Positions 5,234 through 27,928 of a stretch of DNA of 64,000 nt are shown in pieces; position 1 is the stretch's first letter, and every line of letters starts with the position of its first letter. Where the stretch lies: assembly GCA_024231215.1 (NCBI GenBank), contig JAAEQR010000072.1, positions 65,210 through 129,209 of the forward strand, read 5' to 3'. Both the position numbers and the translations under genes were made by a program. The stretch comes from PVC group bacterium (GTDB lineage: Bacteria; Omnitrophota; Gorgyraeia; B26-G9). The notes below the pieces were generated by a model that did not search any database, was not told where the DNA came from, and was given only the letters and a program-made list of their open reading frames with translations.

Positions 5234-5236
5234 AAA

Positions 5237-5294: not shown

Positions 5295-5312
5295 ATGGAG
5301 GAGATAAATAAT

Positions 5313-11892: not shown

Positions 11893-11897
11893 AAAAT

Positions 11898-12392
11898 ATG
11901 TCTTTACATTATATAATAGATGGTTATAACGTTATAAAACAGGTGACTTTTTTTACCGGTAAAAAGTTAAGAGCTGGCAGGGATAGTTTGGTGCATTTTA
12001 TCGAACAACATCGGCCTCAAGGCAGTAGTAAAAATGAAGTAACTGTGGTTTTTGATGGGAAAGCGGAGTTTGATAATCCACAGATAAAAAGTGCAACAGA
12101 GGTTATTTTTAGTAAGAATGAAACTGCGGATGATAAGATTAAACGCATGGTTGAGCATTCCCGGAATCCAAAGAGGATTGTTGTAGTTAGTGATGATAAG
12201 GCAATTGTTTTTTATTGCCGTTCTTTAGGAGCTAGGATAAAAACAGTAAAAGAATTTTTAAATGACTCTCGTATCCCTGAAAAAGTTAAGCCGGATTTTG
12301 AGGGAGCAGATAAACCGGATTTAAGTAGTAATGCAGCACAAGAGATTACAGAGCAGTTAAAAGATATTTGGCTTAAAAGTGAAGAAGAGTAA
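11898..12392 (+). CDS. NYN/YacP-like (PIN-fold) RNA-binding/ribonuclease domain protein
   Basis: N-terminal IIDGYNVI motif and ~160 aa size typical of YacP/Rae1-like NYN domain proteins. Confidence 0.5.
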   Translation: MSLHYIIDGYNVIKQVTFFTGKKLRAGRDSLVHFIEQHRPQGSSKNEVTVVFDGKAEFDNPQIKSATEVIFSKNETADDKIKRMVEHSRNPKRIVVVSDDKAIVFYCRSLGARIKTVKEFLNDSRIPEKVKPDFEGADKPDLSSNAAQEITEQLKDIWLKSEEE

Positions 12393-12397
12393 TAACT

Positions 12398-12691
12398 ATG
12401 AAAAATAAATTAGATTCGTTAATGGTCATTGGTAAGATAACACATTTTCTTGGTACATTGTTACTGTTCAATTTCTTTTTCGGGTTGATTCTTTTTGGTT
12501 TTTTTCGTTGGCTTTTATTTGGGAGTGTTTTATTGTTTTTGTTGTTTTTATCTCTTTTAGCCGGTAAAACAGTTATTTTTAAACCAGGTAAACCGCAGGC
12601 AGAAAGCCAATCGGAACAGCCTCATTATCATAGGCGTAATAAAACAAACAGTGATATTATCGATGTAGAAGCAGAAGTTGTTGATGAGTAG
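12398..12691 (+). CDS. small membrane protein, hypothetical (2 predicted TM, acidic C-terminus)
   Basis: Strongly hydrophobic N-terminal 60 aa. No assignable family. Confidence 0.4.
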   Translation: MKNKLDSLMVIGKITHFLGTLLLFNFFFGLILFGFFRWLLFGSVLLFLLFLSLLAGKTVIFKPGKPQAESQSEQPHYHRRNKTNSDIIDVEAEVVDE

Positions 12692-12752
12692 TAAGTTTGA
12701 CAAATATTAAGATTCGATATAATATATAGAAAAATAGAGGAACTTTTCTTCC

Positions 12753-13436
12753 ATGGATAGGAAAATTTTTTGTTTTATCGCAATTCTATGTTTCTTCTGT
12801 AAAGGTGCTTTTGCTATTCCTGCCGAAGGAGAATCCCGGCCAAGTTTACACAAAAGTATTTGGGGTGTGCAGTTTAACCACATATTTTCCAGGGACTTTA
12901 ACAAAGTCGAAGCGAAGGCAAGTACAACTCAGTATTTTATCAAGGCTAGTTACGGTTTAACTGAAAAATTTTTTCTTGATGGTAAGGTAGGCTGGGGAAA
13001 TGTATCTTTTGATCGGGAAGGGCAGGAAAAGCTTAATTTCCCGAATAATTTTGCCGGCGGATATGGGTTTCGTTACTTATTCTATGAAGATGACAGTCAG
13101 GGGTTAAAAGCTATAGCGGGATTTCAGCATATTAGCTGTCATCCGTTTAAAGATGTAGTAAACAATATCGATCATCGGATTATCTGGGATGAGTGGCAGG
13201 GAACATTATTATTGATCAAAAAGTGGAATAGAGTCGGAATATATTTTGGTCCGCAGTATAGTGAGGCACAGCTAAAGTATAAAGAAGGTGATTTGCGACG
13301 CAGGGTAAAGGGCGAAGATATCTGGGGAGCAGTTATCGGTGCGGATTATTATATAAATGAAAAGACCGGAATTAATATGGAAGCGCGGCTTTTTAACGAG
13401 TGGGCATTAAATATCGGAATGAATTATAAATTCTGA
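12753..13436 (+). CDS. putative outer-membrane beta-barrel protein, hypothetical
   Basis: Signal peptide (MDRKIFCFIAILCFFCKGAFA). Alternating amphipathic strands. C-terminal ...NIGMNYKF with terminal Phe, typical of OMP beta-barrels. Confidence 0.45.
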   Translation: MDRKIFCFIAILCFFCKGAFAIPAEGESRPSLHKSIWGVQFNHIFSRDFNKVEAKASTTQYFIKASYGLTEKFFLDGKVGWGNVSFDREGQEKLNFPNNFAGGYGFRYLFYEDDSQGLKAIAGFQHISCHPFKDVVNNIDHRIIWDEWQGTLLLIKKWNRVGIYFGPQYSEAQLKYKEGDLRRRVKGEDIWGAVIGADYYINEKTGINMEARLFNEWALNIGMNYKF

Positions 13437-13461
13437 AAAGTTAAATGAATAGAGGTGCTTT

Positions 13462-14112
13462 GTGAGCGGAATATTTAGATTTAAGAAATTACGGTTATAT
13501 GTGGCATATCCATTTGCCGCAGTATATTTTTTTCTTGCATATTACACAGGTATAGATTTTAGTATCGGAATTTGGAGTGTATTTTTAGGTTTAATTATTC
13601 GTTTCTGGGCGGCAGGTTTTATTCGTAAAAAACGAGAATTAGCTGTGGCCGGGCCTTATGCGCTTGTGCGTAACCCTTTATATCTAGGTAATTTTTTAGT
13701 TGGATTTGGTTTTTCCTGCTTTGTTAACAATATTTTTATTATTTTGGCTTATTGTGTTTTATTTGCGATTTTCTATATTGGGACAATAAGGGAAGAAGAG
13801 ATATTATTGACCGAGCTTTTTGGACAGCAGTATTTGGATTACAAAAAGAGTGTTCCTTCTATTTTTCCGTTATTTAAGACATATAAAACAGACCAGAAAC
13901 CAGAATATAGTTTGCAGCAGGCTAATCGTAATGGTGAATTTATTCGTGTTGCAGTTACGGCAGTTTTGTTATCTATTTTGTACTGTTTTCAAGGGTTTAT
14001 TTTACAAGGAAGTGTGAATCTGGTAGATATTTTGATTTTTGCCGGACTTTTTATAATGCTTATTTTTACCATAATATCTCGAAGAAGATTTTTAAAACGA
14101 GATATTAATTAA
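13462..14112 (+). CDS. isoprenylcysteine carboxyl methyltransferase (ICMT/PEMT) family membrane methyltransferase
   Basis: Multi-TM protein with GPYALVRNPLYLGNFLVGFG and C-terminal EE..L...FG..Y..Y motif typical of the ICMT family. Confidence 0.6.
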   Translation: MSGIFRFKKLRLYVAYPFAAVYFFLAYYTGIDFSIGIWSVFLGLIIRFWAAGFIRKKRELAVAGPYALVRNPLYLGNFLVGFGFSCFVNNIFIILAYCVLFAIFYIGTIREEEILLTELFGQQYLDYKKSVPSIFPLFKTYKTDQKPEYSLQQANRNGEFIRVAVTAVLLSILYCFQGFILQGSVNLVDILIFAGLFIMLIFTIISRRRFLKRDIN

Positions 14113-14127
14113 CCTGAGAATTAAATC

Positions 14128-15810
14128 ATGCAGAAAATTTGGAAATTTAGAGAATTAGATGGTCATAAACATAAAGCATTTGCCGCAGAACTTGGAGTTT
14201 CTCCGATTTTGGCTCAGATATTATTGAATCGTGGTATTTCGGATCCGGATCAAGCCCGGACTTTTCTTAGATGTGATATGAAAGATTGTCATGATCCTTT
14301 TTTACTTAAGGATATGTCTAAGTCAGTTTCTCGCGTTCAGAAAGCAATTAAGTATAAGGAAAAAATAGTTATTTACGGTGATTATGATGTAGACGGAGTG
14401 ACTAGTTGTGCAGTATTGTTTTATGTTCTTTCGGACTTGGGAGCTGATGTATCCTGTTATATCCCGCATAGAATAGAGCAAGGGTATGGACTTAATCTGG
14501 AGTCTTGTCAAACTTTAAAAGAACAAGGTGTATCCTTGGTAATAACTGTAGATTGCGGAGTTAGTGGGTTCCAAGAGATAGAGTATTTAAAGGAGGCTGG
14601 AGTTGATGTTATTATCACAGATCATCATCAGCCTTTAGAGAGGGGAGTGCCTGATGCGTTATGTGTAATAAATCCTTGGCAGAAAAAATGTTCGTATCCC
14701 TATAAAGAATTAGCAGGGGTGGGATTAGCGTACAAACTTGCCCTGGGGGTTTCTGCGGGAACTTTAGATATATCTGAGCACCTAGATCTTGTAGCTTTAG
14801 GAACGATTTGTGATGTTGCGCCGCTAACCGGAGAAAACAGAATTTTGGTTAAGCATGGTCTAGAGAGACTTTCTAATACTAAAAAAGAGGGATTGAGAGC
14901 CTTAAAAGATATAGCTAAAATCAGGGCAAAGAAGCTTTCTACCCATCATGTAGGATTTATGTTTGGCCCTAGACTAAATGCTATGGGAAGAATGGGCTCA
15001 GCTGAGAAATCACTGGAGCTTTTATTAAGTACAGATTATGCTCAAGCATATAAACTGGCCCAAATACTTGATCAGGAAAACCGGACCCGGCAGAAAACAG
15101 AACAAAAAATTTTGAAAGAAGCTCTGTCGATGGTGGAAAGTCAGATAAATTTTAAACATCATCGTACGGTAGTTTTGCATAATGATGCCTGGCATCCGGG
15201 TGTTATCGGCATTGTTGCCTCTCGCATAGCGGAAAGATTTTATCGGCCTACAATCCTGATTTCGACACAAGAAGGTATTGGCAAAGGTTCCGGACGTTCA
15301 ATCAGAGATTTTCATCTATTTGATAATTTATCAAAATGCAATCATCTTTTGGAAGGATTCGGAGGCCATGCGAATGCTGCGGGTATATCTATTTTAGAAG
15401 AAAATCTGGCTGATTTTAAACAGGCATTTAATGATTTAGCCAGTCATGATCTTACCCCGGAAAAATTACAGCCGATAGTGGATGTAGATATGGAAGTTAC
15501 GCTGAGCGCGCTTTCTGAAAAACTGATTAATGATTTGGAAAAATGTGCTCCTTTTGGCATTGGTAATTCACGTCCAGTATTTGCTTCCCAGGATTTAAAA
15601 CTTAAGCAGAGGCCAAAGATTTTGCGCGGAGAAACCTTTAAGTTATGGCTTACCGATGAAAAGATTACGTGTGAGGCGATTGGTAGGCTTAACGGAGTTG
15701 CCCCAACGTCTCTTAATGAGGGATTTTCTATAGTCTATTCGCCGTCTATCAATGACTGGCAGGGGATCTCCACAATACAACTGCAGTTAAAAGACATCAG
15801 ACTCGCCTGA
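14128..15810 (+). CDS. recJ: single-stranded-DNA-specific exonuclease RecJ
   Basis: DHH motifs (YGDYDVDGVTS, ITDHH), DHHA1 region (GGHANAAG), C-terminal OB fold. Confidence 0.9.
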   Translation: MQKIWKFRELDGHKHKAFAAELGVSPILAQILLNRGISDPDQARTFLRCDMKDCHDPFLLKDMSKSVSRVQKAIKYKEKIVIYGDYDVDGVTSCAVLFYVLSDLGADVSCYIPHRIEQGYGLNLESCQTLKEQGVSLVITVDCGVSGFQEIEYLKEAGVDVIITDHHQPLERGVPDALCVINPWQKKCSYPYKELAGVGLAYKLALGVSAGTLDISEHLDLVALGTICDVAPLTGENRILVKHGLERLSNTKKEGLRALKDIAKIRAKKLSTHHVGFMFGPRLNAMGRMGSAEKSLELLLSTDYAQAYKLAQILDQENRTRQKTEQKILKEALSMVESQINFKHHRTVVLHNDAWHPGVIGIVASRIAERFYRPTILISTQEGIGKGSGRSIRDFHLFDNLSKCNHLLEGFGGHANAAGISILEENLADFKQAFNDLASHDLTPEKLQPIVDVDMEVTLSALSEKLINDLEKCAPFGIGNSRPVFASQDLKLKQRPKILRGETFKLWLTDEKITCEAIGRLNGVAPTSLNEGFSIVYSPSINDWQGISTIQLQLKDIRLA

Positions 15811-15883
15811 AATATTTTCAGTCAATAGCCATAACATGTTACCTTGAAAGCACTTAAAGTTTTCAAAAAAGTTGCTTTCGTCC

Positions 15884-15912
15884 TTGCGGGAATTGAAAAC
15901 ATATGGTATACT
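15884..15912 (+). promoter_or_regulatory. promoter of giant gene: TTGCGG-17nt-TATACT with extended -10 (TGGTATACT)
   Basis: -35 at 15884-15889, TGn extended -10 at 15904-15912. Followed by the very strong RBS AAAGGAGG 8 nt before ATG 16007. Confidence 0.45.
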
Positions 15913-16006
15913 TTAAAGAATTTTTTGAACTTTTTCAATCTGCTTTTTAAAGATAATAATAAAAGTTTAGTAATTCAATATATGTGATTTAAAAAGGAGG
16001 ATTATT

Positions 16007-19000
16007 ATGTTTAAGGCTCCACCTAATATGTTTTTGAGGATTACCTCACTAGCAATCATCCAAATATTTTTAATTACTAATGTCTCTTTTGCCGGAGGCA
16101 ATTTTTTTGCCCAAAATCAGGGGGAGGACTGTCTTTCGCCTGCCTTAGAGATCAATGCCGGAGCATTAAAGCAGGGAATATTAGCTGTTATTGAGGGAGA
16201 TAGTATTCCCAATGATGTTTCCAGCTTGGAAATGACCACATTATTGGAAACGGCACTGAGTAATCTTAGTGATATTGAAAATAATTCAGAGGACTTAAAT
16301 CTTGAAGTCTTGGAACAGTCAATAGATCAAGTAAGACAAATTAATGCGCAAATTAATTATCTTACGGGGGGTAGTGACGAGGGAGTAAATGATCTTTATT
16401 CAAGATTTCTTAGTAGACGTTCAGATTTAGCAAAAAAAATATCCGCAATAGTAATAAATGATGTTGCTAAGTATGCAGGTGTTTTAGAAAAGCTAGTTAG
16501 TCAATCAAAAGAGGATATGCATAAGCATATAGCTATGATGGTTGAGAATGAGAAGATAACTGCTACACAGGGAGATGCAACATTAAAAACAGCTATAAAG
16601 TTTCTTGAAGAATGGTTAGCTCCAGGAAATAACATTCCTCAATATATTATTCAGGGTATATATAAGGGGATGTTAGAAGGTCGTTCAGGAGATCTCTTAT
16701 ATGCGTATGGATTTGGCTGGCGTCAGTTTGGTACAGCTGGAATCAGGAATCAGGCGGTGCAAAGTGAATTCCCAGTTTTACTTCAGAAAGAAGTTGATGA
16801 ATTTGCTGAAGATGTGCATGCTCCAATATTAACTGGTCCAAATATGATTAATACAGTTACTTTATTGCAGCAGGTGGCAGCTTTGGTTGGATTGGTCAAA
16901 GATATTAGAACCAAATTGCAGCAAAAACTCAATAAAGGTATGAGTTTGGCAAATGCGGCTGAGGAATGTGGAATAGCTGAAGAATTTGCACAAAACATGT
17001 TGGATAACACGATTACCGTTACCTATGATAGTCGGTTGAATGGGGAATATTTTGCTCAGTTGCTTGGTGCCGCATTTTTGCAGAAAGATATAAAAGTAAA
17101 CCTTATGGATAGTCCATCCGGAGTACCGGCTGGAGTTTCTATTGCAAAAGGTGCTTCTTTTTTTGGTGAATTGGTTAAAGATTCTCGTTTTGCTGAGTTT
17201 GAACAGATAACAGGATCTATTTTTGGAATTCTTATTTCTGCCAGTCATAGTGAAGCAGAATATAATGGGTTTAAAGCATTTTTGGCGTATCAAAAATCAC
17301 AAGTAGATGCTGATAGTAAAAATATGATAATGGATGCCAGGGGAAATGTTAACTATAGCGATATAAACATGCGATTAGATACAGGATCTAAAGAAGATTT
17401 AAGATTGATATTTAGAAAATATAAGAATAATTTAATCTGGCTGGGTGGGGAGAAGAAAGTAGATGGCAAAGATTATTGTGGTGCCAAATTCGTACCTTTT
17501 TATCCGCTTTATTTTGAATATTTACGTAAAAGATCACCGATTCCTTATGCTGAATTGTCAAGTGATGATATTGAATCGATTAATGCAGCGAAAAAAGATC
17601 TAGGCATCTTATATACTGCTTTTTATGGTGGCGGATCTGTTTCTGCTGCTAATCTACCGGGATTTTTCCAGGAAATGGGATATGATAATGTAGCTATTGT
17701 AGATAAACAAACTAAAGTTATGGATGGGAAATTTCCAGGGCATATAATGCCTGATCCGGGTGTTGTAGAAGGATGGATGAGTAATTTGTATCATTTTCTT
17801 CAGCAGATAGCCGGAGAGGATTTGTCGGATATAGAAAAAGCCGTAGAAATGCTTAATAATAGACAGACGGGTGCTGCTACAGACCCGGATGTTGACCGGG
17901 CAGGTATGATGTTGGATTTAGAACCAGGGCAGCAAGGCAATGTGCGGGATGCTTTTATTGACTGGATAAGTCGGAATTTACAATACAGAGATGATATTTT
18001 GCCTGAAAAAAAACAACATATTATTAATGTTTTAACAAATAATTTAAAAGATAAATTGTTATTAACGGCAAATGATTCCTGGACATTTATGGCATATTAT
18101 AAGCTGCAGATCAGGGAAAAATATGGGTTGCTGGATAAAAACAAGCTTTACATCATTGAAAAATCCCATGTTACTACAGACGGGCTTGAAAATGTTGCCG
18201 CATATTATCGCAAGAAAGGTTATCGTGTGTATGTTGTGGATACATATGTAGGATTTACAGAATTGGCTAAAAAAAGCCGGGATTTGTTTGCTATAGCAAA
18301 AAAGGCATGGAAGATCAAAAAAATGTTAGATAAGTTAGATGAGCCAAATGAGCAAGAACTAAGGTGGGGTGAACTAGAAGAATTGCTGATAGAACTTAAA
18401 CAAGAGAATAAGATTTTAAAGACTAATGTTCCGTATGCTACCGCTGGATTACCCATAGTTGATGAGGCTATAGAGGCATTTGAAAATAGTAATTTTCAAA
18501 AAGCGGAAGAACTCTGGAATAGTATTGCCCATATGGAGAATATTTTGGCTTGTGAGGAAAGTAACGGTTATGGAGAGCTGGGGGAATATATTCCGGAAGA
18601 AGATAAAGTAGTGAATGCCCACATATCTGAAAAGGATGGAGGGTTAGCTTTGTTTGAGTTTTTTGAAATACTCTCTTATGGAAAAGCTGTTTTGGGAAAA
18701 TCGGAATATTCGATGTTTTTAGATATGCTTAGCGAAATAGGGTATTGTACAACAGATAACCAGTTTTTAAAATATCCGGGGCTTAGCGGGGTTCAGGAAA
18801 AAGTGGATGCGATTGAGAGTTTTGAAAAGGTATTTGCAGCTTTAATTCAAAAGGCTATTGATCAGGGCCAGGTAGTTACTTTATTTAATGGAAAGTATAC
18901 AGTAGAAGAAGTTATCGTTTACAGAGATAAAAAATATGATATTACTTATAATGGGTTTCCTGAGGAAGGAATCCGTTTAGTTTTGCGTACACAGAAGGGG

Positions 19001-22000
19001 AGCAAAGCGATAACAACATTTAGACCTTCCGGCACCGGTGATAATAACCGGGATTATAACTGGATAGTGGGTTTGATTCCTGAGACTGGGACTGATATGG
19101 AAGTTTATAGGAGAGAAAAAGTACAGGAATTAGAAGAACTCAGGGCTGATTTTTTTGGTGAATTTGGAGTTTCTGTTGGTTATGCAGATTTGCCTAAAGG
19201 TGAATTTTATGGATTGTTGACTGCAATGTGGGAATCAGGCAGTAATAGTCATTTAGCAATATTCAACAAAGCTTTAGACATAGAAGTTAACTTTACTTCA
19301 GCTGAAAACAAGTTACTTGATGCTGTAAAAATGTTTACCTTTGCGACAAGAGATAGAAAACGGGAATATATGAAAATGACTCCGGATCAAATGTGCGAAG
19401 AATTGCGTAAGACTCTTTTGTCCGCAAGGCGAAATCGAGCTGCATGGAATAAATATCTTTCTGCGAAGGAAGCAACAGAGTATAAAGATGTATTTAAGGT
19501 ATATGTTAATGGTGAAGTATTTGCTGAAGTCCCGAAAGTTTTTGTTAAACCGTGGATGATCGGGTTTGCCGGATATATTGCTGAAGAGTTGATCGTAAAC
19601 AGATTGGATTTAACAAGTGCTTGGGTTGATACGGATGATTTGGAAGTGACAGATGAGATACGTTTTCAGATAGATAAATTACAGCAAATAAGGCAGGAAT
19701 TGAATGAAATGCATAGAGCCGAACGTGAAGCAGCAGAAACTCTTTCTGGAAAACTGCATACACCTTTGGAAACAGAAAATCCTGATATGGCGGCACGATA
19801 TCTCAAGGGTGGATATCAGCAAGATGGATATGGTGTTCCATCGGGAGCGGTCATCGACGGCTCCTTTGCGGTGGGTGTTGCAGGGACTCAGGGATACTAT
19901 GTGTATGGAGGCAAAGAGATATTTCAAGGGATTGTTGCAAGTATGAAGAAGTTTTTCAAAAAACGAGCTAAAAGGTTAGGCAAGCCGATAAAATTGGTTA
20001 TAAAGATAGGTATTGGCGGACAGCATACTCCATTTCAAGCGATTGCTGAGGGATTTCAGGTGGTGGATTCTGAAACAGGAATTATTGTCGGGGAGTATGA
20101 GTTAGGGAAGGATTATGAGACATCTCTTTCGGAAATTGTAGAAAAGATGGGTATTGATTGGGATCAGATAGCTGTTATACCGAGCTCTAAATCCGGTTCT
20201 ACGGATGAGACGATGATGATCTTTGATGATGTTTTAGCTGTACTGCTTAAATATATTGCTTCTATGAAATATAACATTGACGGAGAAAAATTTACAGATA
20301 CTGTTTTTCAGGTATTGCATGAAGTGAATTTTGTTGATGGTAAAGAGCGTTCTGGGAAAGATCTTTTTAAGATAAATAAAGAGCGTTTTGGCACGGATAG
20401 TTTGGTAGAAGTGCTCTATGAACGGTTACAAGATAAAAGGATGCAAATAAGTAAAAGCGGAATAAAAGATATATTTGCGATAGTTCTCGGTAATATGTTT
20501 TTTGAGACTACCGATAGAGTAGAAGCAAGCAGATTGTCAGCATTTATCAGAAACTCCGGACTAGATAAGGAGCTTGGTGAAGATGCTCCAGGGTTTGGTG
20601 CAATGTTTGATAATGTCGGTGGCAGATGGACCAGTGATTTGCATATGATGACATTTCTTGCTTTCCATGATTTAAATGAGGAGCTGTATTATAAGAAAAG
20701 GATGGAAGAAATATTTAGGGTTCTTGCCGGTTCACCTTCAGTGAGGCTGTATCAGGATATAAAAGAAAAAATAGATGATGATGGCACACATAAGGGGTAT
20801 ATGTTAGGCAATCGTATTGCTGAGGAAACGATAACGGATATTGCTCTAGTGTTGCCGGATTATTTATTCTGGTTTGGAAAATCAATAGAACAGAATTTTA
20901 ACGAAAGTACTTGGCAGAAAGGCTTTGTAAATCTTGTTGCGATTAAACAAAGCCAATGGGGTGTTCAGAAAAAAAATTATGTGGACAGGTCTGAAAGACT
21001 GGTAATTAACCTGTCTAACTTAGATATTGATGAAAATAGTTTTAATGTGTATACCCGAAATTTCCCTGATTTTACTAAGTTGCAAAAACAGGATATCTCT
21101 GGTCAGTACGCATCTTTATTTAGCATGTTCTATGGAATTACTCATAATTTGGGTAACCGGCTGATTATCAGAGCACTTACAGCTGCCGGATATAATGTAG
21201 AAGATGTTAACTTAAATGATTTAGATAATCCTGCGACTAAAATTGTTCAGCAAAATCTTTATGTATTACAGCCTTTTGTAGAATTAGGGAAGAAACTATT
21301 GGAAAATAGATTAAAAATGCTGCAATCAGCAGAGGTAAAAAGCCCGGGAGTTATTGCTCAGGCTGAAGATGAGATTAAAAGGCTGGCAAGGGAAGGTACC
21401 ATAGAATCAAATATTCCAAGCATGGATATGCCAGATAGTGTGCAGGATATGGGAACACTGGCTAAGGTTATTAAGCAAGCAATTGAACATGCAAGGCAAG
21501 CTAATCGTAAATTTGCGCCGTTTATTTATTTAGAAGGTGGTAAATTTATGGATATGAGGGATTACCTGACAGAGTTGGGTATAGAGTGGGTTATGCAGGG
21601 TACGGGGGATCAGCATATTAGTTATCAGCAGGTATTAGCTCAGCCGCAGAAATATTCTATATTTATTATTTCATTTGTTCCTGAACAATTTATTCCGGGT
21701 AAGCCGGCAATTGGTTTTGCAAAAGGGTATTTGCATAATATTAGTCCTAATATGGTGAGAGATTATTTTGCGGAAGCTTCTTATCGGGCGCTTACTCAGT
21801 TAAGAGTTGAACAGGGTGGGAGAGGGATCTTCCTGCGTTTAATCGACTCACAGGAAAATATATCTATGATAAAAAAGGCAATGGTGGCAGCTCTGAATGA
21901 TGAAGTTCAAAATGAGATGGTAGCTGATTCACCGGCTGTTGCTGAGAATGATTCTGTAAAAACAGAAGAAGTGATAACTGTTATCCAGAGCGCAATTTAA
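16007..22000 (+). CDS. giant (1,997 aa) exported multidomain protein: Sec signal peptide + unknown N-domain + PGM1-like alpha-D-phosphohexomutase (4 domains) + coiled-coil linker + phosphoglucose-isomerase-like SIS module
   Basis: Signal peptide aa 1-30 (h-region ...SLAIIQIFLITNV, SFA-GG). Phosphohexomutase signatures: FGTAGIRN (nt ~16730), catalytic SASHSE-x3-NGFK (nt ~17237), DGKFPGHIMPDP (nt ~17723), Mg loop DPDVDR (nt ~17882), sugar loop CEESNGYGE plus EKDGGLALFEFF (nt ~18551), phosphate loop RPSGTGD (nt ~19022). PGI signatures: IGIGGQ (nt ~20006), SKSGSTDET (nt ~20186), GGRWTS (nt ~20618), GTGDQHISYQQ catalytic-His region (nt ~21599). Confidence 0.8.
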   Translation: MFKAPPNMFLRITSLAIIQIFLITNVSFAGGNFFAQNQGEDCLSPALEINAGALKQGILAVIEGDSIPNDVSSLEMTTLLETALSNLSDIENNSEDLNLEVLEQSIDQVRQINAQINYLTGGSDEGVNDLYSRFLSRRSDLAKKISAIVINDVAKYAGVLEKLVSQSKEDMHKHIAMMVENEKITATQGDATLKTAIKFLEEWLAPGNNIPQYIIQGIYKGMLEGRSGDLLYAYGFGWRQFGTAGIRNQAVQSEFPVLLQKEVDEFAEDVHAPILTGPNMINTVTLLQQVAALVGLVKDIRTKLQQKLNKGMSLANAAEECGIAEEFAQNMLDNTITVTYDSRLNGEYFAQLLGAAFLQKDIKVNLMDSPSGVPAGVSIAKGASFFGELVKDSRFAEFEQITGSIFGILISASHSEAEYNGFKAFLAYQKSQVDADSKNMIMDARGNVNYSDINMRLDTGSKEDLRLIFRKYKNNLIWLGGEKKVDGKDYCGAKFVPFYPLYFEYLRKRSPIPYAELSSDDIESINAAKKDLGILYTAFYGGGSVSAANLPGFFQEMGYDNVAIVDKQTKVMDGKFPGHIMPDPGVVEGWMSNLYHFLQQIAGEDLSDIEKAVEMLNNRQTGAATDPDVDRAGMMLDLEPGQQGNVRDAFIDWISRNLQYRDDILPEKKQHIINVLTNNLKDKLLLTANDSWTFMAYYKLQIREKYGLLDKNKLYIIEKSHVTTDGLENVAAYYRKKGYRVYVVDTYVGFTELAKKSRDLFAIAKKAWKIKKMLDKLDEPNEQELRWGELEELLIELKQENKILKTNVPYATAGLPIVDEAIEAFENSNFQKAEELWNSIAHMENILACEESNGYGELGEYIPEEDKVVNAHISEKDGGLALFEFFEILSYGKAVLGKSEYSMFLDMLSEIGYCTTDNQFLKYPGLSGVQEKVDAIESFEKVFAALIQKAIDQGQVVTLFNGKYTVEEVIVYRDKKYDITYNGFPEEGIRLVLRTQKGSKAITTFRPSGTGDNNRDYNWIVGLIPETGTDMEVYRREKVQELEELRADFFGEFGVSVGYADLPKGEFYGLLTAMWESGSNSHLAIFNKALDIEVNFTSAENKLLDAVKMFTFATRDRKREYMKMTPDQMCEELRKTLLSARRNRAAWNKYLSAKEATEYKDVFKVYVNGEVFAEVPKVFVKPWMIGFAGYIAEELIVNRLDLTSAWVDTDDLEVTDEIRFQIDKLQQIRQELNEMHRAEREAAETLSGKLHTPLETENPDMAARYLKGGYQQDGYGVPSGAVIDGSFAVGVAGTQGYYVYGGKEIFQGIVASMKKFFKKRAKRLGKPIKLVIKIGIGGQHTPFQAIAEGFQVVDSETGIIVGEYELGKDYETSLSEIVEKMGIDWDQIAVIPSSKSGSTDETMMIFDDVLAVLLKYIASMKYNIDGEKFTDTVFQVLHEVNFVDGKERSGKDLFKINKERFGTDSLVEVLYERLQDKRMQISKSGIKDIFAIVLGNMFFETTDRVEASRLSAFIRNSGLDKELGEDAPGFGAMFDNVGGRWTSDLHMMTFLAFHDLNEELYYKKRMEEIFRVLAGSPSVRLYQDIKEKIDDDGTHKGYMLGNRIAEETITDIALVLPDYLFWFGKSIEQNFNESTWQKGFVNLVAIKQSQWGVQKKNYVDRSERLVINLSNLDIDENSFNVYTRNFPDFTKLQKQDISGQYASLFSMFYGITHNLGNRLIIRALTAAGYNVEDVNLNDLDNPATKIVQQNLYVLQPFVELGKKLLENRLKMLQSAEVKSPGVIAQAEDEIKRLAREGTIESNIPSMDMPDSVQDMGTLAKVIKQAIEHARQANRKFAPFIYLEGGKFMDMRDYLTELGIEWVMQGTGDQHISYQQVLAQPQKYSIFIISFVPEQFIPGKPAIGFAKGYLHNISPNMVRDYFAEASYRALTQLRVEQGGRGIFLRLIDSQENISMIKKAMVAALNDEVQNEMVADSPAVAENDSVKTEEVITVIQSAI

Positions 22001-22008
22001 ACAATAAT

Positions 22009-22072
22009 TTAGCTGCAAATACCGACATGCCCCGTCAGGGTTTTTCTGACGGGGTTTTGTTATATAATAAGG
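22009..22072 (+). repeat. ~65-bp intergenic repeat copy A (TTAGCTGCAAATACCGACATG-[hairpin]-TTTTGTTAT-ATAAGG)
   Basis: ~85% identical to the copy at 24712-24777, same orientation. Confidence 0.8.
22030..22060 (+). terminator. rho-independent terminator after giant gene (CCCCGTCAG-loop-CTGACGGGG + TTTTGTTAT)
   Basis: 9-bp GC-rich stem at 22030-22038/22046-22054 followed by a T-tract. Lies inside repeat copy A. Confidence 0.7.
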
Positions 22073-22088
22073 TTAGAGGAGGAAAGGT

Positions 22089-24434
22089 TTAAATTGACTG
22101 TTCATAGATAAAATGATTATTTATTTCATCTTGAATTTTATGATTATTTTTTGAAGACATATTGATATCCTTGTCCCATGAATTTTGTTTTTCTTCTATT
22201 AAGTCTACTATCCGTTTTCCATAGCCGTTGATTCCATCTTCATTTTCAATTGCTTCTAAAGACATCCAAAGCCAATCAATAGCATTTTGCACAGTATCAA
22301 CATCGTCTTTCACATTAGCTCTAGCATTAGCGCTTACTGATTCATACAATTTCTTATTAGTAAATAAGCTGTACAATCTATTCGCTACTTTTAACTCCTG
22401 AGCCCCATTGCGACTAACTATAAATGTCGAACCGGTTATTTTTCCTGCTTTTTTTCTAACAGGCACTGCCTGATCAACCGGTCCCGGGAGATCAGTAATA
22501 ATAGTTGGTATTTCTAGTGAGCCAAGTTCAGAAATTTTTATTTCGTAACCTTCTGCTGTAGATAACTGTGTCCCAACCCAATCATTAGCAGCAAGAACAC
22601 CTAAGATCTGGTCATTATGGCCTATTCGTGCTATTTTGATATCACTGAATAACTCTTTATATTCTAAATATGCTTCTAAGAGATATTTATTATACAAAGG
22701 CATCCCCTCAGGATCATCTATTGCGCCATGCCCGGCAATAACCAACTGTGGTATTTTTGCCTTTGGATAGGTCTCTCCCAATTTATCACGAAAGACTTTA
22801 TAAGCTTTCAAAAGATCAAGGATACCCTTTGCAGGGTCAAAGCGACAAATCTGTAATATATAAGGTCTGGTAAAATCTAATGGCTCCTGTTGAAATTTTG
22901 CTAAAAAGTCTCTTAATTTTTGATCTTCTCGGTCTTTAATATTTACTCGATTGTCATTCTCTAATAAATTTAACAGGTTTTCCTGCTGTTTAGACAATTC
23001 ATTTTTATCTGCTATTTGTAATATTCTTTTATTACTTAGGTTCAGTACTGTATTAAACATATTCATATAATATGATTTGTCGCTTTTACTAAAATAATTA
23101 AATTTGTTAAGTCCGTCAAGACCGCCTAAACCTTGTTTTGAAATATCGGAAGCTGCTCCTTTTTTGATTATTATTTTTTTGTGACGGCGAATATCGTTTG
23201 GGATAAAAGCATCAACTGGATGCGTCACAAAAGCTTCAATGTGAAATTTATTTTTGCGTGCATCCCAAAGATTTTCGAAAATATACTTCCAATTAGTCTT
23301 AGTTGAATTAGAATCATCTAAAGGTAAATCAGTCAAGTTGCTTCTTATCTGGATATGTGATCTATAAAGAATTTTTATATGTGGATATTTTTCTTTAATT
23401 AAAGGTATTAACCCGGATGGTTGATAATCATCAATTATAACTACAGTTGCTCTTTTTATTTTTGGCTCCATTAATTTAAAATTATAATTAGTCCACGCTT
23501 TAAGTCTCTGTTTGTCATGCTCTGTAAGCCTATGATCAAAATTAGCAGCATTTGTATTTTGCAATGCATTATGCATCTTCTTTTTTGTTATGTTCGGAAT
23601 ATCCTCAAACTCTTTACCATCTAGATCCATTGCAAGCCAGTGGGCATCGATACCTAAAAGTTTATAAAGACGAATAAGCGCATGACGCATAAGAGCGACT
23701 CCTCCGCCTTGAGCAGTAGAATTAACAAATACCATATTTAATTTTCTTTTTTTTGCAAGCTTAACAAGATGTAAAAGTGTGTGCCATTTTTTAGGCGGAG
23801 TAATCTTTTTATATTCATCAAGAGTTACTAACGGATTTACTTGGATTTCTCTATTTTTATCGATCATAACTTTGCGTATTACAAGACCAACTTCGTCTAC
23901 TTCAAAGCTATTTGCGGCAAGACTCGCAGCATTCTGAGATATTTGCTCTGATGTGCCATTTGGAAGATTCTCAAATATTTTCACAGGAACAATATCGTTA
24001 TTAAGCCAAAGATTGCTGCCCAGCTTTGCTTTTTCGTTGGCAGATAATCCTTTTCCTTCAATTGCTACGCCATGTACTTTTAAAGGGTTACCCTTCTTGC
24101 GCATGCCCTCAACATCCTCTCTTATAGCTTCAATTATATCCTTATTAGTTCTTAAGAAAGTTTTAGTTTGACCATTCTTACCATTGGAATTAATTGTTAA
24201 GCTAAAGCTATCTTTAGTTATACATATGCCAGCAAAGGCGGGCTCTAAAGATAGCTTATCCAGATAGGCATTCATAACTGTTGACTTGTTTATACTTATG
24301 GAGGGGGATAGCGTGGACATTATGGTGCTATTGGCGGCAAAAGACAAATCCAGATATAAAAATGCCTGGATAATGATAAATGATATTACCTTTAAAAATA
24401 GTCTATTTTTTGATTCGTACTTATACATATACAC
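22089..24434 (-). CDS. TreT-like GT4 retaining glycosyltransferase with signal peptide and ~200-aa N-terminal extension
   Basis: aa 236-300 VNSTAQGGGVALMRHALIRLYKLLGIDAHWLAM...FEDIP...MHNALQN closely matches the N-terminal motif of trehalose glycosyltransferring synthase (TreT). FDPAKGILDLLKAY. E628-x7-E636 (STAEGYEIKISELGSL...ITDLPG) GT4 motif. N-terminal signal peptide MYMYKYESKNRLFLKVISFIIIQAFLYLDLSFA-AN. Confidence 0.75.
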   Translation of the reverse strand: MYMYKYESKNRLFLKVISFIIIQAFLYLDLSFAANSTIMSTLSPSISINKSTVMNAYLDKLSLEPAFAGICITKDSFSLTINSNGKNGQTKTFLRTNKDIIEAIREDVEGMRKKGNPLKVHGVAIEGKGLSANEKAKLGSNLWLNNDIVPVKIFENLPNGTSEQISQNAASLAANSFEVDEVGLVIRKVMIDKNREIQVNPLVTLDEYKKITPPKKWHTLLHLVKLAKKRKLNMVFVNSTAQGGGVALMRHALIRLYKLLGIDAHWLAMDLDGKEFEDIPNITKKKMHNALQNTNAANFDHRLTEHDKQRLKAWTNYNFKLMEPKIKRATVVIIDDYQPSGLIPLIKEKYPHIKILYRSHIQIRSNLTDLPLDDSNSTKTNWKYIFENLWDARKNKFHIEAFVTHPVDAFIPNDIRRHKKIIIKKGAASDISKQGLGGLDGLNKFNYFSKSDKSYYMNMFNTVLNLSNKRILQIADKNELSKQQENLLNLLENDNRVNIKDREDQKLRDFLAKFQQEPLDFTRPYILQICRFDPAKGILDLLKAYKVFRDKLGETYPKAKIPQLVIAGHGAIDDPEGMPLYNKYLLEAYLEYKELFSDIKIARIGHNDQILGVLAANDWVGTQLSTAEGYEIKISELGSLEIPTIITDLPGPVDQAVPVRKKAGKITGSTFIVSRNGAQELKVANRLYSLFTNKKLYESVSANARANVKDDVDTVQNAIDWLWMSLEAIENEDGINGYGKRIVDLIEEKQNSWDKDINMSSKNNHKIQDEINNHFIYEQSI

Positions 24435-24711
24435 CTGCTTTATTATAAAAAAGTGTTAAAAACATATAATATCTCAGAGGGATTCTAAGTACTTTTTAAA
24501 AAAGATAATAAAGTATATCATAAAAGATTTTATTTTGCAAATAAAATACGGTTTGTAGCTATTTAAAGATAAAATAGGTTAGGAAACAGTATTTTGTTAA
24601 AGCTATGGAATTAATTGATTCTTGCCATATTTTTGACTATTTTTCATTTCAACAGAGTATCAATTGTATGTGAAACAAGCTATATAAATATTAATAAAGA
24701 TAAGTAACCGG

Positions 24712-24777
24712 TTAGTTGCAAATACCGATATGCCCCGTCAGGTTTTTTTTGACGGGATTTTGTTATTTTCAATAAGG
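24712..24777 (+). repeat. ~65-bp intergenic repeat copy B with terminator-like hairpin (CCCGTCA-GGTTTTTTT-TGACGGG)
   Basis: Direct repeat of 22009-22072. Located in the divergent promoter region between the GT4 gene (-) and mscS (+). Confidence 0.8.
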
Positions 24778-24852
24778 GGGAATAACCGTAGAAAATCATT
24801 GATTTTTAGATGAATAATGGATATACTAAAAATGTTATTTTAGGAGGAATAT

Positions 24853-25878
24853 ATGAGTGATCTTATAAGATCAGCTATTGGAATTGGTATTATTGTGCTT
24901 TTTGGATTTTCCGGGCTGTATTTGCGTAAAAAGATATTTGGTTTATTGCATAAAATTGCTTCCCGGACTTCCTGGAAAGGTGATGATTTAGTGATTTCTG
25001 CACTTAAATCACCTTTTGTGCTGTGGTGTATTCTCTTGGGTGTGTATGTTGCCATAGTTTATGTACAGATACCCAGCAACATTTCTATAATTGCGAATAA
25101 GGTTTTGTTTTCCACTTTGATCATATCTATTACTGCTGTTATCGCAAAAATTTGTGTTAGTTTCAGTACTTTATATGCGGAGAAGTTGGGGACAAATACT
25201 GATATTGTACGCAGTGTTATTTATGCGATGGTATTTGCGATTGGCTTGATGTTTTTATTTAATGCTTTAGGCATTTCTATTGCACCTTTATTAACAACTC
25301 TGGGTATTGGGGGATTAGCTGTAGCTTTGGGGCTGCAGGATACTCTGGCTAACTTATTCTCCGGATTATATATTACTGCGGCAAAACAGGTGCGCATAGG
25401 TGATTATATAAAGTTAGATAGCGGAGAAGAAGGTTATGTCGTAGATATTAGCTGGCGCACGACAAAAATAAAACCTTTGCATAATAACCTTATTCTCGTT
25501 CCCAATTTCAAATTAGGAGAGGCAATAATAACTAATTATTATCTTCCGGAAAAAGAATTGGCTGTGAAATTAGAAGTAGGGGTGCATTATGACAGTGATC
25601 TGGAGAGGGTAGAAAAGGTGACGGTGGAGACCGCAGAAGAGCTGATGCAGAAAATAAATGGTGCAGTAGCAGGCTTTAAGCCGTTTATTCGCTATCATAC
25701 TTTTGATAGCTCTAGTATTAATTTTACAGTGTTTTTAAGGGCTAAAGAGTTTGTTGATCACTATTTAATTACACATGAGTTTATAAAGGAATTGCATAAA
25801 CGTTATGCCCAGGAAGACATAGTTATTCCTTATCCGATCCGGGCAATTAATTATTCACAAGAGAAGGTAGAAGTTTAA
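24853..25878 (+). CDS. mscS: small-conductance mechanosensitive channel, MscS family
   Basis: TM helices plus the conserved pore-helix region LTTLGIGGLAVALGLQDTLANLFSGLYI. C-terminal beta domain. Confidence 0.85.
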   Translation: MSDLIRSAIGIGIIVLFGFSGLYLRKKIFGLLHKIASRTSWKGDDLVISALKSPFVLWCILLGVYVAIVYVQIPSNISIIANKVLFSTLIISITAVIAKICVSFSTLYAEKLGTNTDIVRSVIYAMVFAIGLMFLFNALGISIAPLLTTLGIGGLAVALGLQDTLANLFSGLYITAAKQVRIGDYIKLDSGEEGYVVDISWRTTKIKPLHNNLILVPNFKLGEAIITNYYLPEKELAVKLEVGVHYDSDLERVEKVTVETAEELMQKINGAVAGFKPFIRYHTFDSSSINFTVFLRAKEFVDHYLITHEFIKELHKRYAQEDIVIPYPIRAINYSQEKVEV

Positions 25879-25900
25879 ACGTAGGGGAGTATTCAGTATT

Positions 25901-26206
25901 ATGTTTGTTTTAGGTTTTATTCTCGATGGCTTAGCAGCAGTAATTAGTATGATATTGACTATATTGTATTGGCTTATTTTAGCACGGGCTTTGATTTCAT
26001 GGGTGAGTCCGGATCCTTATAATCCGATTGTTCGTTTTTTGCGGCAGGCTACGGATCCGATTCTTGAGCCGATACGTAGAGTATTAATGCCGTTGACGTA
26101 TAAAATTCACATTGATTTGTCTACCATAGTTGCTTTTTTTCTTATTGTTTTTTTACAGCGTTCTGTGGTCGGTATACTTTTTACTTTGGCGCGTCAGCTT
26201 AAATAA
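25901..26206 (+). CDS. yggT: YggT family membrane protein
   Basis: ~100 aa, two TM helices, LILARALISWV...TDPILEPIRR motif typical of YggT/Ycf19. Confidence 0.75.
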   Translation: MFVLGFILDGLAAVISMILTILYWLILARALISWVSPDPYNPIVRFLRQATDPILEPIRRVLMPLTYKIHIDLSTIVAFFLIVFLQRSVVGILFTLARQLK

Positions 26207-26215
26207 GAAATATAA

Positions 26216-27928
26216 ATGAAAAATATATTTAATAGATTTTTGGATATCTTAATGAGCGTAACTGCTCTAGTATCTTTTTTGCTTTTACTTATGCAGTGGG
26301 GTGGGGTAGACTTTTCTCAAATAACATCTCAGATAGCTGATGCCGATAAATTATGTGAGACTATTGATGGAATAGTTTTATATATATTTTTGGCGATTGT
26401 TGTCCTTCGATTTTTATTTTCTGGTTCTAAAAAAGAATATTTTAAAAAATACTGGCTTGATTTGCTGGTATTTATACCTATTGCTCAATTTTTCTTGCAA
26501 GGAGTAAGAACGGCAAGATTATTTATTGTAATTAGGCAGGGATTTGTTATCTTTTACAAATTGTTCCGGAGTAATTTGTTAAAAAAGATTATTAGCTTAT
26601 TAGGGCTTAAGCCGGCACAGCTATTGGTAGTCAGTTTCATGATGGCTATTCTGATCGGAGCTTTTTTGCTGACGCTACCCATAGCGACTACAGATGGAAG
26701 AGGCGCTGATTTTATTGATGCCTTATTTACCGCTACTTCAGCTACTTGTGTTACCGGATTAATTGTTAAAGATACCGGTACGTTTTTCTCTCTTTTTGGC
26801 CAGCTGATCATTCTTCTTTTGATTCAGGTTGGAGCGTTGGGAATAATGACTTTTTCTATAACTTTGTTTGTTGCGGTAGGCAAAAAGATATCTAATAAAG
26901 AAGCTATGGCTATGCAGGAAGTTTTAGACCAGGATAGTGTTGCCGATATTTTGGGAGTAGTTAAATTTATTGCGACTATGACAGTTTTTGTGGAATTTTT
27001 AGGTGCAGCTTTTTTGTTTTTTTCCTTTGAGCCGTATATTTCTGATCCGATTCAAAGGTGGTATATATCTGTTTTTCACTCAATTTCTGCGTTTTGTAAT
27101 GCCGGCTTTTCTTTGTTTTCAGATAACTTAACGGGGTTTGCCCTGGATGTTAATATCAATTTATGCATTTCGTTTTTAATAATTTTTGGTGGTATAGGTT
27201 TTATCGTAGTTAAAGACATTTGGGATAAATATATATTGCGTAAACGAGCCAGAAGTATCGGGGTGCGTTTGCATACAAAGCTGGTACTTACCGTTACTTT
27301 GTCTTTGCTTGTAATCGGGACGGTTTTGATCTTCTTCGCTGAGAATAATGTGGGGTTAAACGGGTTAGCCTTAAAAGATAAAATATTAATGAGTTTCTTT
27401 CAGTCGGTTACGACCCGGACAGCAGGATTTAATACAATGGATATTGGCCGTCTTACTAATGCCAGTATTTTTTCGATGATAATTTTAATGTTTATTGGAG
27501 CATCTGCCGGTTCTACTGGTGGAGGGATTAAAACCACGACGTTTTGGATTATTTTAAAAGCATTTACCAGACATATGCAGAACAAAGAGGATATAAGCGC
27601 ATTCAAACGTAAAATTCCGGATGTGCTTTTAGGTAAAGCATTGACAATATTTGTACTTTCTGCTGGTTTGGTTGTTTTATTTACATATTTGCTTTCGATT
27701 TTTGAGTCTTTTTCTTTTCGGGATATAGTGTTTGAAGTAGTATCAGCCTTTGGTACGGTTGGGTTATCTTGTGGGATAACCCCGGATTTTCATATGGGTG
27801 GAAAGATTTTGATTACAATATTAATGTTTTTAGGAAGGCTTGGTCCATTGACAATGGTTCTTGCTTTTGCTGCATATAAGCGAAAGATAAATTATACTTA
27901 TGCCGAAGAGAAGATAATGGTGGGATAA
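26216..27928 (+). CDS. trkH: TrkH/KtrB family cation (K+) transporter with ~100-aa N-terminal extension
   Basis: Four MPM repeats with selectivity-filter glycines (SATCVTG, FCNAGFS, TRTAGFNT, GSTGGGIKTTTF; GTVGLSCG). Confidence 0.8.
   Translation: MKNIFNRFLDILMSVTALVSFLLLLMQWGGVDFSQITSQIADADKLCETIDGIVLYIFLAIVVLRFLFSGSKKEYFKKYWLDLLVFIPIAQFFLQGVRTARLFIVIRQGFVIFYKLFRSNLLKKIISLLGLKPAQLLVVSFMMAILIGAFLLTLPIATTDGRGADFIDALFTATSATCVTGLIVKDTGTFFSLFGQLIILLLIQVGALGIMTFSITLFVAVGKKISNKEAMAMQEVLDQDSVADILGVVKFIATMTVFVEFLGAAFLFFSFEPYISDPIQRWYISVFHSISAFCNAGFSLFSDNLTGFALDVNINLCISFLIIFGGIGFIVVKDIWDKYILRKRARSIGVRLHTKLVLTVTLSLLVIGTVLIFFAENNVGLNGLALKDKILMSFFQSVTTRTAGFNTMDIGRLTNASIFSMIILMFIGASAGSTGGGIKTTTFWIILKAFTRHMQNKEDISAFKRKIPDVLLGKALTIFVLSAGLVVLFTYLLSIFESFSFRDIVFEVVSAFGTVGLSCGITPDFHMGGKILITILMFLGRLGPLTMVLAFAAYKRKINYTYAEEKIMVG

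Follow-up and report, generated by a model that had tools for sequence, protein, structure and literature searches.

A TreT-like GT4 glycosyltransferase (GT) gene is enclosed, between a gene of 1997 aa and mscS, by two direct copies (A and B) of a repeat of around 65 nt, and this repeat pair is most likely an ordinary scar of the insertion of the GT gene and not a new kind of element. To the more specific reading that one ancestral terminator was duplicated upon insertion of the 2.64-kb GT segment, we give about even credence. The window (i.e., the whole stretch of DNA analysed, 64 kb in length) contains the following features concerned here:

14128-15810, plus strand: recJ, left anchor of the conserved synteny
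15884-15912, plus strand: promoter of the 1997-aa gene, TTGCGG-17-TATACT
16007-22000, plus strand: 1997-aa gene with a PGM_PMM_I domain, an Omnitrophota-type large fusion protein
22009-22072 (64 nt), plus strand: repeat copy A, with the 21-nt 5' arm TTAGCTGCAAATACCGACATG, hairpin, T-tract and a tail ending in AATAAGG
22029-22055, plus strand: copy A hairpin with 11-12 pairs, of which 7 are G-C, at -19.5 kcal/mol; TTTGTTAT follows it
22089-24434, minus strand: TreT-like GT4 glycosyltransferase gene, 781-aa open reading frame (ORF) from GTG
24512-24540, minus strand: promoter of the GT gene, TTGCAA-17-(TG)TATACT
24541-24711, no strand: AT-rich spacer from the GT promoter to copy B, without similarity to any other fetched sequence
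24712-24777 (66 nt), plus strand: repeat copy B, oriented as copy A
24734-24756, plus strand: copy B hairpin with 9 pairs, of which 5 are G-C and two G-U, at -13.6 kcal/mol; ATTTTGTTAT follows it
24799-24827, plus strand: promoter of mscS, TTGATT-17-TATACT, right-hand edge of the conserved backbone
24853-25878, plus strand: mscS, right anchor of the conserved synteny (mscS-yggT-trkH-hemB...)

The repeat unit and its predicted role in termination

Concerning the two same-orientation, hairpin-bearing copies at these positions, which a preliminary description had reported, the alignment, pattern and profile searches all agree. Over their full length, A and B are about 90% identical and differ by 6 substitutions and one 2-nt indel (91% identity in a gapless alignment of the first 55 nt), the longest identical run common to both being 13 nt. 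A 27-nt core pattern allowing up to 3 mismatches matched only A and B in the 64-kb window, and none of 100 shuffles contained two or more matches to it; a profile built from the two sequences (nhmmer) recovered each copy at E ~5e-20, with the next-best match in the window at E 0.44. Two terminators that are 90% identical over 65 nt are homologous copies and not independent inventions.

The similarity between the copies ends sharply on both flanks, and the conserved unit reaches 21 nt upstream and around 15 nt downstream of the hairpin plus T-tract. Conservation of the 21-nt arm 5' of the hairpin equals that of the hairpin, and the divergence is spread evenly across arm, hairpin and tail. Copy A starts 8 nt past the stop codon of the 1997-aa gene, and 16 nt separate its end from the stop of the convergent GT gene. 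Copy B ends 11 nt before a block conserved with relatives, TAGAAAATC-TTGATT...TATACTAAA, and 22 nt before the mscS -35 box. Terminal inverted repeats are absent, as the ends (TTAGCTGCAAATA... and ...TATAATAAGG) show no complementarity and the internal hairpin is the sole dyad. Likewise, no target-site duplication is found at the flanks of copy A (ACAATAAT and TTAGAGGA) or of copy B (GTAACCGG and GGGAATAA).

Both copies exhibit the anatomy of an intrinsic terminator, i.e., a GC-rich hairpin with a T-tract directly after it, and transcription termination is predicted for both A and B. They are the sole strong intergenic sites of this type on either strand of the 64 kb, with which terminator tool scans of positions 1-20000, 21700-25000 and 45000-64000 agree, so copy B is not merely one among many similar terminators. 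Strong canonical terminators otherwise seem to be very rare in the window. From its anatomy and its position, copy A is predicted to be the intrinsic terminator of the 1997-aa gene, in accordance with the preliminary description. Like a Rho-independent terminator, it has a GC-rich stem-loop directly before a T-tract and follows the stop codon by 8 nt on the coding strand; unlike such a terminator, the conserved unit is longer than hairpin plus T-tract, and no annotated gene precedes copy B. The copy A hairpin has no T-tract when read on the minus strand and would therefore terminate GT transcription only weakly, if at all.

On the plus strand upstream of copy B, no annotated gene ends. The earlier placement of this orphan copy in the region upstream of mscS holds and can be refined, as it lies just 5' of the mscS promoter and hence outside the mscS leader. 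Its hairpin is 6 kcal/mol weaker than that of copy A, and each of the five GC-changing differences shows G or C in A and A or T in B. Taken together, these two observations fit a constrained original and a decaying duplicate in a genome of 36% GC; copy B looks like the decaying copy, less constrained and drifting towards AT.

The possibility that the repeat constitutes an old 3' UTR of the 1997-aa gene was considered and rejected: homologues of this gene have just the N-terminal two-thirds in common, with unrelated C-termini and downstream regions. The E-value of 0.016 for an 11-mer match 3' of one homologue (L033), obtained in a very small search space, is no better than chance.

The GT gene and the recJ-mscS slot

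The GT gene, for which the public record gives a start at an ATG at 24428 (779 aa), is the only gene and the only ORF of at least 80 aa between A and B, and the ORF layout thus agrees with the earlier statement that the copies enclose nothing but this opposite-strand gene. Its promoter is of a shape typical of the lineage, which recurs upstream of the 1997-aa gene and of the variable-slot genes of the relatives. The spacer contains an ORF of 30 codons with a TTG start (24615-24707), which ends 4 nt before copy B and is otherwise unsupported. Neither blastn nor tblastx similarity was found for the spacer as a decayed gene or as a duplicate of the 3' end of the 1997-aa gene, and this origin was discarded; the spacer searches matched only promoter regions of the relatives, thereby revealing the motif of the GT promoter.

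Within a co-directional block of around 34 kb (positions 1 to 34.7 kb), the GT gene is the only ORF on the minus strand. Its third-position skews (GC +0.08, AT -0.05) are intermediate between the means of minus-strand genes (GC -0.18, AT +0.13) and plus-strand genes (GC +0.41, AT -0.15), and have not equilibrated to the minus strand. With around 210 G/C third positions, its GC3 skew lies more than 4 standard errors from the plus-strand mean as well as from minus-strand genes longer than 270 aa. GT homologues elsewhere resemble it in this respect (GC +0.15 to +0.19, AT -0.02 to -0.03), and the intermediate composition could reflect a foreign origin rather than age. The GC content of the gene differs only slightly from that of its surroundings.

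In the related loci L003, L004/L005 and L006, the gene order recJ...mscS-yggT-trkH-hemB-radical SAM is retained, and the mscS promoter together with the upstream TAGAAAATC is conserved in L003, L004 and L006. The GT gene is absent from the recJ-mscS interval of all these loci; in L003 and L004/L005, other genes occupy the slot and no recognisable copy of the repeat is found. The interval between recJ and mscS is a variable slot in the relatives. In the comparison of synteny proposed earlier, the GT gene is indeed missing from the interval; however, the relatives are distant (MscS 67-70% identical at the amino acid level, with no close relative in the databases searched) and the whole slot differs among them, such that the absence of the gene demonstrates a variable slot and not a clean empty site. 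The nearest GT homologues (63-65% amino acid identity) are situated in unrelated neighbourhoods.

Of the two events between which the preliminary description had left the choice, insertion of the GT gene looks correct, given its absence from the recJ-mscS interval of the relatives, its position as the lone minus-strand gene in around 34 kb, and its intermediate skews. Inversion by recombination between the repeats is impossible: recombination between direct repeats leads to deletion or integration, not to inversion, and A and B are in direct orientation.

No integrase or recombinase is present within or beside the insert, whose neighbours are the large PGM-domain gene and mscS, and no tRNA or tmRNA gene that could have served as an integration target occurs in the window. 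The sole recombinase in the scanned part of the window is a tyrosine recombinase of the XerC/D type (3065-3937), 19 kb from the repeats, which passes the XerC and XerD cut-offs and scores 122 as an integron integrase (cut-off 265). Among the 26 window ORFs scanned with Pfam (up to around 35 kb), there is no RAYT (Y1 transposase).

Proposed origin of the repeat pair

In the scenario proposed here, the repeat unit would be an intrinsic-terminator module in which the 21-nt arm is followed by the GC-rich hairpin, the T-tract and a short tail. A single copy would originally have separated the conserved mscS promoter from the gene at the end of the variable recJ-mscS slot, at present the 1997-aa gene. 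A segment of 2.64 kb (22073-24711), comprising the GT4 gene and its own promoter, would then have been inserted backwards at this ancestral terminator, leaving one terminator copy at each junction. Same-orientation copies are indeed found at exactly both borders of the non-conserved segment, with A at the 3' end of the large gene and B before the mscS promoter block. The insertion may have proceeded by a Campbell-type single crossover of a circular or looped intermediate bearing a homologous copy, or through duplication of the target during repair or replication. Both the mechanism of the duplication and the direction of the event, i.e., insertion rather than loss in the relatives, are inferred from this arrangement.

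As in a Campbell-type or other duplication-generating insertion, copies in the same orientation bound the insert, the sequence would be single in the uninterrupted site, and the insert is absent from relatives and compositionally out of equilibrium. Unlike in described cases of Campbell-type integration, no donor molecule, empty-site allele or integrase is seen in the sequences examined. A Campbell-type event requires a donor that already bears a similar sequence, and we know of no mechanism that routinely duplicates 65 bp on insertion. From the divergence of around 9% between A and B, it follows that the event lies some time back or that the donor copy differed from the outset; this divergence agrees poorly both with a recent origin and with prolonged neutral evolution.

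After the insertion, copy A would still terminate transcription of the 1997-aa gene and thereby shield the convergent GT gene from antisense read-through, and its hairpin would probably provide the sole, weak stop for GT transcription. Copy B could halt plus-strand transcripts that leave the insert ahead of the mscS promoter. Recombination between A and B would excise the GT gene precisely and leave a single terminator, with a predicted empty-site junction of ...GCGCAATTTAAACAATAAT-[one repeat]-GGGAATAACCGTAGAAAATCATTGATT.

Further copies, alternative explanations and significance

The copy number of two was counted within the 64-kb window, which is part of a source contig of 708 kb. Searches of 185,579 species-representative genomes, of JGI metagenomes and of 35 fetched loci yielded no further copy of the repeat, and the 2.8-kb segment had no match in plasmid and phage collections. 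A 21-nt pattern that matches the window exactly is absent from the genome and metagenome contig collections searched. A hairpin-centred pattern yielded 20 matches in genome contigs (Enterobacter, Cupriavidus, Clostridia, a Victivallales MAG and others), all of which are bidirectional-terminator stems (AAAATGCCCCGTCAGG...CCTGACGGGGCATTTT) without the 21-nt arm, and which were dismissed as convergent stems and not relatives; 4 matches of a left-arm pattern in metagenome contigs have flanks without a hairpin and look like chance matches within coding sequence. Rfam 15 gave no gathering-level match in the window, and in permissive scans of A and B the best E-value was at least 0.12, at least 30 bits under the threshold.

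It is unlikely, albeit with an appreciable chance, that A and B belong to a genome-specific dispersed intergenic family of low to moderate copy number (REP-, MITE- or 'portable terminator'-like), two members of which would flank the GT gene by happenstance, perhaps as such elements accumulate at recently rearranged junctions. Some small dispersed intergenic repeats function as terminators, and the present unit resembles REP/BIME, ERIC, Correia and RUP (MITE-like) elements in being short, intergenic, discrete on both sides and located at gene ends, with a stable hairpin core as is typical of REP-like elements; an identity of around 90% is usual in such families, and the only strong terminator type in 64 kb could be a spreading module. 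It differs from them in that just two copies exist in 64 kb, that neither terminal inverted repeats nor a target-site duplication nor a RAYT or other transposase is in view, the only recombinase in the scanned part of the window being the XerC/D-type enzyme 19 kb off, and that no copy occurs in the genomes, metagenomes and loci searched. Moreover, the two copies are only 2.7 kb apart (estimated probability around 8% for random placement) and lie exactly at both borders of the one lineage-specific, opposite-strand gene. The REP- or MITE-like family suggested earlier is hence unsupported, and the assignment to MITEs was rejected on their defining features, terminal inverted repeats and target-site duplication, both of which are absent here. 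Improbable as well is that copy B acts as the working terminator of an unannotated small plus-strand gene or sRNA in 24541-24711, e.g., the 30-codon ORF, with arm and hairpin retained on two transcripts for a function at the 3' end, for instance as a site of processing or binding. The ORF stops 4 nt before B, comparable to the 8 nt between the large gene and A, and the arm is as conserved as the hairpin; yet no promoter-like site on the plus strand of 24435-24711 reached the scan threshold, the ORF begins with TTG and lacks a clear ribosome-binding site, no Rfam family matches, and a divergence that is even and directed towards AT in B is expected of decay rather than of selection.

Very improbable, in our view, are attL/attR-like sites, in which the hairpin arms (9-10 bp, with a spacer of 5-7 bp) would be the inverted repeats bound by a recombinase and the GT gene a promoter-carrying cassette mobilised in trans into the recJ-mscS slot. 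This geometry, which resembles the core site of a tyrosine recombinase, is common to any intrinsic terminator, and the T-tract is here on the expected strand; T-tract and position after a stop codon indicate a terminator rather than an attC or dif site. Direct repeats with an internal dyad around a single gene, together with a XerC/D-type recombinase in the window, are shared with integron attC sites and with Xer-dependent, dif-flanked IMEX, and the slot is variable in relatives, each variable gene having its own promoter. However, the insert neither contains nor adjoins a recombinase, the one found passes the XerC/XerD cut-offs and fails that for integron integrases, and no other cassette bearing the site occurs in the genome or metagenome collections searched. 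An integron origin was discarded, as neither copy has the R''/R' core pair of attC (RYYYAAC...GTTRRRY) and there is no IntI in the scanned part of the window and no cassette array; unlike in IMEX, no dif-like 11-6-11 site exists outside the terminator hairpin. A chance resemblance or an artefact of assembly has a practically negligible probability, even for a source that is a metagenome-assembled genome, considering the E-value of each copy and the outcome of the shuffles; exact matches of at most 13 nt would not cause mis-joins in assembly graphs built with the k-mer sizes commonly used, and 6 differing positions plus an indel do not correspond to a collapsed or duplicated read path.

We consider it rather improbable that the 65-nt unit represents a module confined to this Omnitrophota lineage and capable of moving or recombining, i.e., either a spreading 'portable terminator' miniature element or a crossover site at which promoter-bearing single-gene cassettes are swapped in the recJ-mscS slot, and the finding would have greater importance only if the unit were such a spreading terminator element or cassette recombination site. 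As it stands, it opens no new question, but it aids the annotation of an uncultured Omnitrophota-like lineage and flags recJ-mscS as a variable slot. If the repeat pair is indeed the scar of a GT insertion with duplication of an ancestral terminator, the locus would constitute a clean small example of an accessory gene slotted into a conserved row of operons, by which a trehalose-synthase-like enzyme would have been placed beside osmotic-stress genes. The transcription units of the host would remain insulated, and the arrangement would be reversible through recombination between the repeats.

Gene layout and anatomy of the repeat

The DNA comes from the MAG of an uncultured 'PVC group bacterium' (locus tags GY853_), whose closest relatives are Omnitrophota MAGs. 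In the first part of the window (1-34.7 kb), the gene of a TreT-like GT4 glycosyltransferase (GT gene; protein MCP4649030.1, on a 708-kb contig) is the sole minus-strand ORF of at least 100 aa that is not overlapped by a larger plus-strand ORF. The two same-orientation repeat copies around it, which the preliminary description had reported, are borne out by the sequence.

Features of the recJ-mscS interval (coordinates, strand, feature)
14128-15810, +, recJ, left of the putative variable slot
15884-15912, +, predicted promoter of the 1997-aa gene, lineage-typical shape
16007-22000, +, 1997-aa gene with PGM_PMM_I domain, between recJ and copy A
22009-22072, +, copy A, 64 nt
22089-24434, -, TreT-like GT4 glycosyltransferase gene, convergent with the 1997-aa gene
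24540-24512, -, good predicted promoter of the GT gene, TTGCAA-17-(TG)TATACT
418 nt between GT gene and mscS, AT-rich intergenic region, contains copy B
24712-24777, +, copy B, 66 nt
24799-24827, +, predicted promoter of mscS, TTGATT-17-TATACTAAA
downstream of the intergenic region, mscS, yggT and trkH, then hemB and heme-related genes

Each copy consists of a 21-nt arm (TTAGYTGCAAATACCGAYATG), a GC-rich hairpin (predicted folding -19.5 kcal/mol in copy A, -13.6 kcal/mol in copy B) and a T-rich tail. The copies are 91% identical, ungapped, over the first 55 nt and differ over their full length (64/66 nt) by 6 substitutions and one 2-nt indel; their likeness stops sharply at both ends. With up to 3 mismatches, the 27-nt core of the repeat matches the window at copies A and B alone and shuffled sequences nowhere, and a two-copy profile finds both at E about 5e-20, no other match in the window being better than E 0.44. 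Given the alignment, shuffles and profile E values, chance resemblance or an assembly artefact is excluded for practical purposes, and we regard the pair as a real two-copy direct repeat of a putative intrinsic-terminator module. The 5' arm also has a perfect 13-nt reverse-complement match (AGCTGCAAATACC) at 18829-18841, within the 1997-aa gene, which is no better than chance (blastn-short E about 0.1). Adjacent paralogues occur at 59084-60139 and 60158-61207 (patches of about 71-81% nucleotide identity, spacing 1074-1095 nt) and at 49760-50992 and 51022-52230 (one 81-nt patch in common).

Both strands were scanned for perfect stems with 7 or more pairs (G-U included), 4 or more of them G-C, and with at least 6 T within 9 nt after the stem. 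Exactly two intergenic sites in the 64 kb passed, copy A and copy B; looser scans of 1-20000, 21700-25000 and 45000-64000 yielded elsewhere only weak candidates with at most 4 G-C pairs, mostly intragenic. The copies are thus no chance pair out of a larger set of similar terminators: they are the only strong sites in the window, and they are homologous to each other. The intergenic DNA of the window has many gene ends but hardly any strong canonical terminators of the intrinsic type.

All five GC-changing differences (unit positions 5, 18, 31, 37 and 45) have G or C in copy A and A or T in copy B, where one converts a G-C pair to G-U and another opens the basal pair of the stem. In a genome of 36% GC, this one-way pattern (two-sided probability about 0.06) is only suggestive: it would fit a constrained original in copy A, at work as terminator of the large gene, with copy B as its less constrained duplicate.

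The interval in relatives and its composition

The closest MscS proteins show 67-70% identity, and the recJ/mscS loci of relatives (L003, L004/L005, L006) keep the order recJ ... mscS-yggT-trkH-hemB-radical SAM-AsnC-type regulators-hemL-tatABC. Both flanks of the recJ-mscS interval (14128-24853 in the window, 1145-10001 in L003, 1-3603 in L004) are syntenic for >10 kb. The interval itself holds differing, unrelated plus-strand genes in these relatives (930, 576 and 701 aa in L003; 370 and 593 aa in L004) and lacks the GT gene, in agreement with the earlier suggestion that this gene was inserted. Its nearest homologues (L001, L002; 63-65% aa identity) lie in unrelated neighbourhoods. The 1997-aa protein is a member of an Omnitrophota-centred family whose proteins, of 1100-3400 aa, are organised around the PGM_PMM_I domain and in some cases also contain a fused UDP-glucose pyrophosphorylase, PGI or methyltransferase domain; its homologues, encoded elsewhere, have only the N-terminal two-thirds in common with it, and none was found for residues about 1320-1997. 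Because the slot genes differ among relatives and the homologues of both present occupants are located elsewhere, the interval is, judging from gene content, a variable slot with two accessory occupants. None of the fetched loci contains a copy of the repeat unit.

A similarity search with the spacer unexpectedly matched promoter regions of relatives. The alignment gave a lineage-typical shape, TTGCAA-N14-TATGGTATACTTTA...TTTTTTAA (extended -10 and conserved downstream T-run), present upstream of both slot genes of the window (GT and 1997-aa) and, in relatives, of several large variable genes (sites at about 1550-1600 and 269-317 in L004, 2909-2938 in L003 and 7747-7781 in L002), such that each variable gene seems to possess its own promoter copy. 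The mscS promoter is kept in L003, L004 and L006, together with the adjacent upstream TAGAAAATC. Its position and conservation place copy B, which ends 22 nt before the -35 box, upstream of it, and a role of copy B as mscS leader or attenuator is thereby ruled out.

Third codon positions differ very strongly between the strands of the window: in plus-strand genes the GC3 skew is +0.41 (sd 0.12) and the AT3 skew -0.15, against -0.18 and +0.13 in minus-strand genes other than the GT gene (GC3 skew -0.19 to -0.39 in those >270 aa). This asymmetry suggests that mutation is strongly biased by replication strand, the + strand being the leading one across the window. The GT gene (782 codons; GC3 skew +0.08, AT3 skew -0.05) lies >4 standard errors from both the larger minus-strand genes and the plus-strand mean, and close to what its homologues show in the genomes that carry them (+0.15 to +0.19 for GC3 skew, -0.02 to -0.03 for AT3 skew); its GC content and codon usage depart only mildly. 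By its skews the gene is not equilibrated to its present strand, which fits a comparatively late arrival or re-orientation.

Origin of the repeat pair

The repeat pair is best read as what an inserted gene left behind in the variable slot, a reading to which we give about an even chance. The most economical account would start from one terminator between the last variable-slot gene and the mscS promoter, at which the 2.64-kb GT segment (22073-24711) would have entered, leaving one copy per junction: either a circular intermediate already bearing a homologous copy recombined by single crossover, or the target was duplicated by a repair or replication event. Copy A, the predicted terminator of the large gene, would shield the convergent GT gene, for which its hairpin would be at best a weak stop, as the minus strand has no T-tract; copy B could stop plus-strand transcripts from the insert ahead of the mscS promoter. 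We infer how the duplication came about, which way the event went and that the copies terminate transcription. Inversion by recombination between the repeats, a variant proposed earlier, is rejected, since recombination between repeats in direct orientation can lead to precise deletion or to integration but cannot invert the segment between them.

That two members of a dispersed REP/MITE-like family flank the GT gene is rather unlikely: only two adjacent copies exist in 64 kb, exactly at the insert junctions, with neither terminal inverted repeats nor a target-site duplication at either copy, and no transposase nearby, and searches of species-representative genomes, JGI metagenomes, plasmids and phages gave no further copy. 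It is improbable that copy B ends the transcript of a small gene or sRNA in the spacer; a 30-codon ORF does stop 4 nt before it, but shows neither a promoter-like site at the scan threshold nor a clear ribosome-binding site. Even less credible are att- or attC-like recombination sites, whose defining features fail here: core motifs are lacking, no recombinase lies within the insert or next to it, and a scan of part of the window found just one, of XerC/D type, 19 kb away. This XerC/XerD-type tyrosine recombinase (3065-3937, immediately downstream of topA) exceeds the curated cut-off of the XerC equivalog model as well as that of the XerD model.

Functional context

The GT protein carries a ~200-aa N-terminal extension with a hydrophobic segment (MYKYESKNRLFLKVISFIIIQAFLYLDLSFA...). 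Matches over its full length (99% of query) were seen with two 802-aa homologues only, most relatives having about 600-650 aa. The region 22089-27928 is a possible functional cluster, in which a trehalose-synthase-like GT4 adjoins mscS, yggT and trkH, all tied to osmotic adaptation, and the sugar-phosphate mutase fusion protein on the other side of the GT gene could supply NDP-glucose to the GT4 enzyme.
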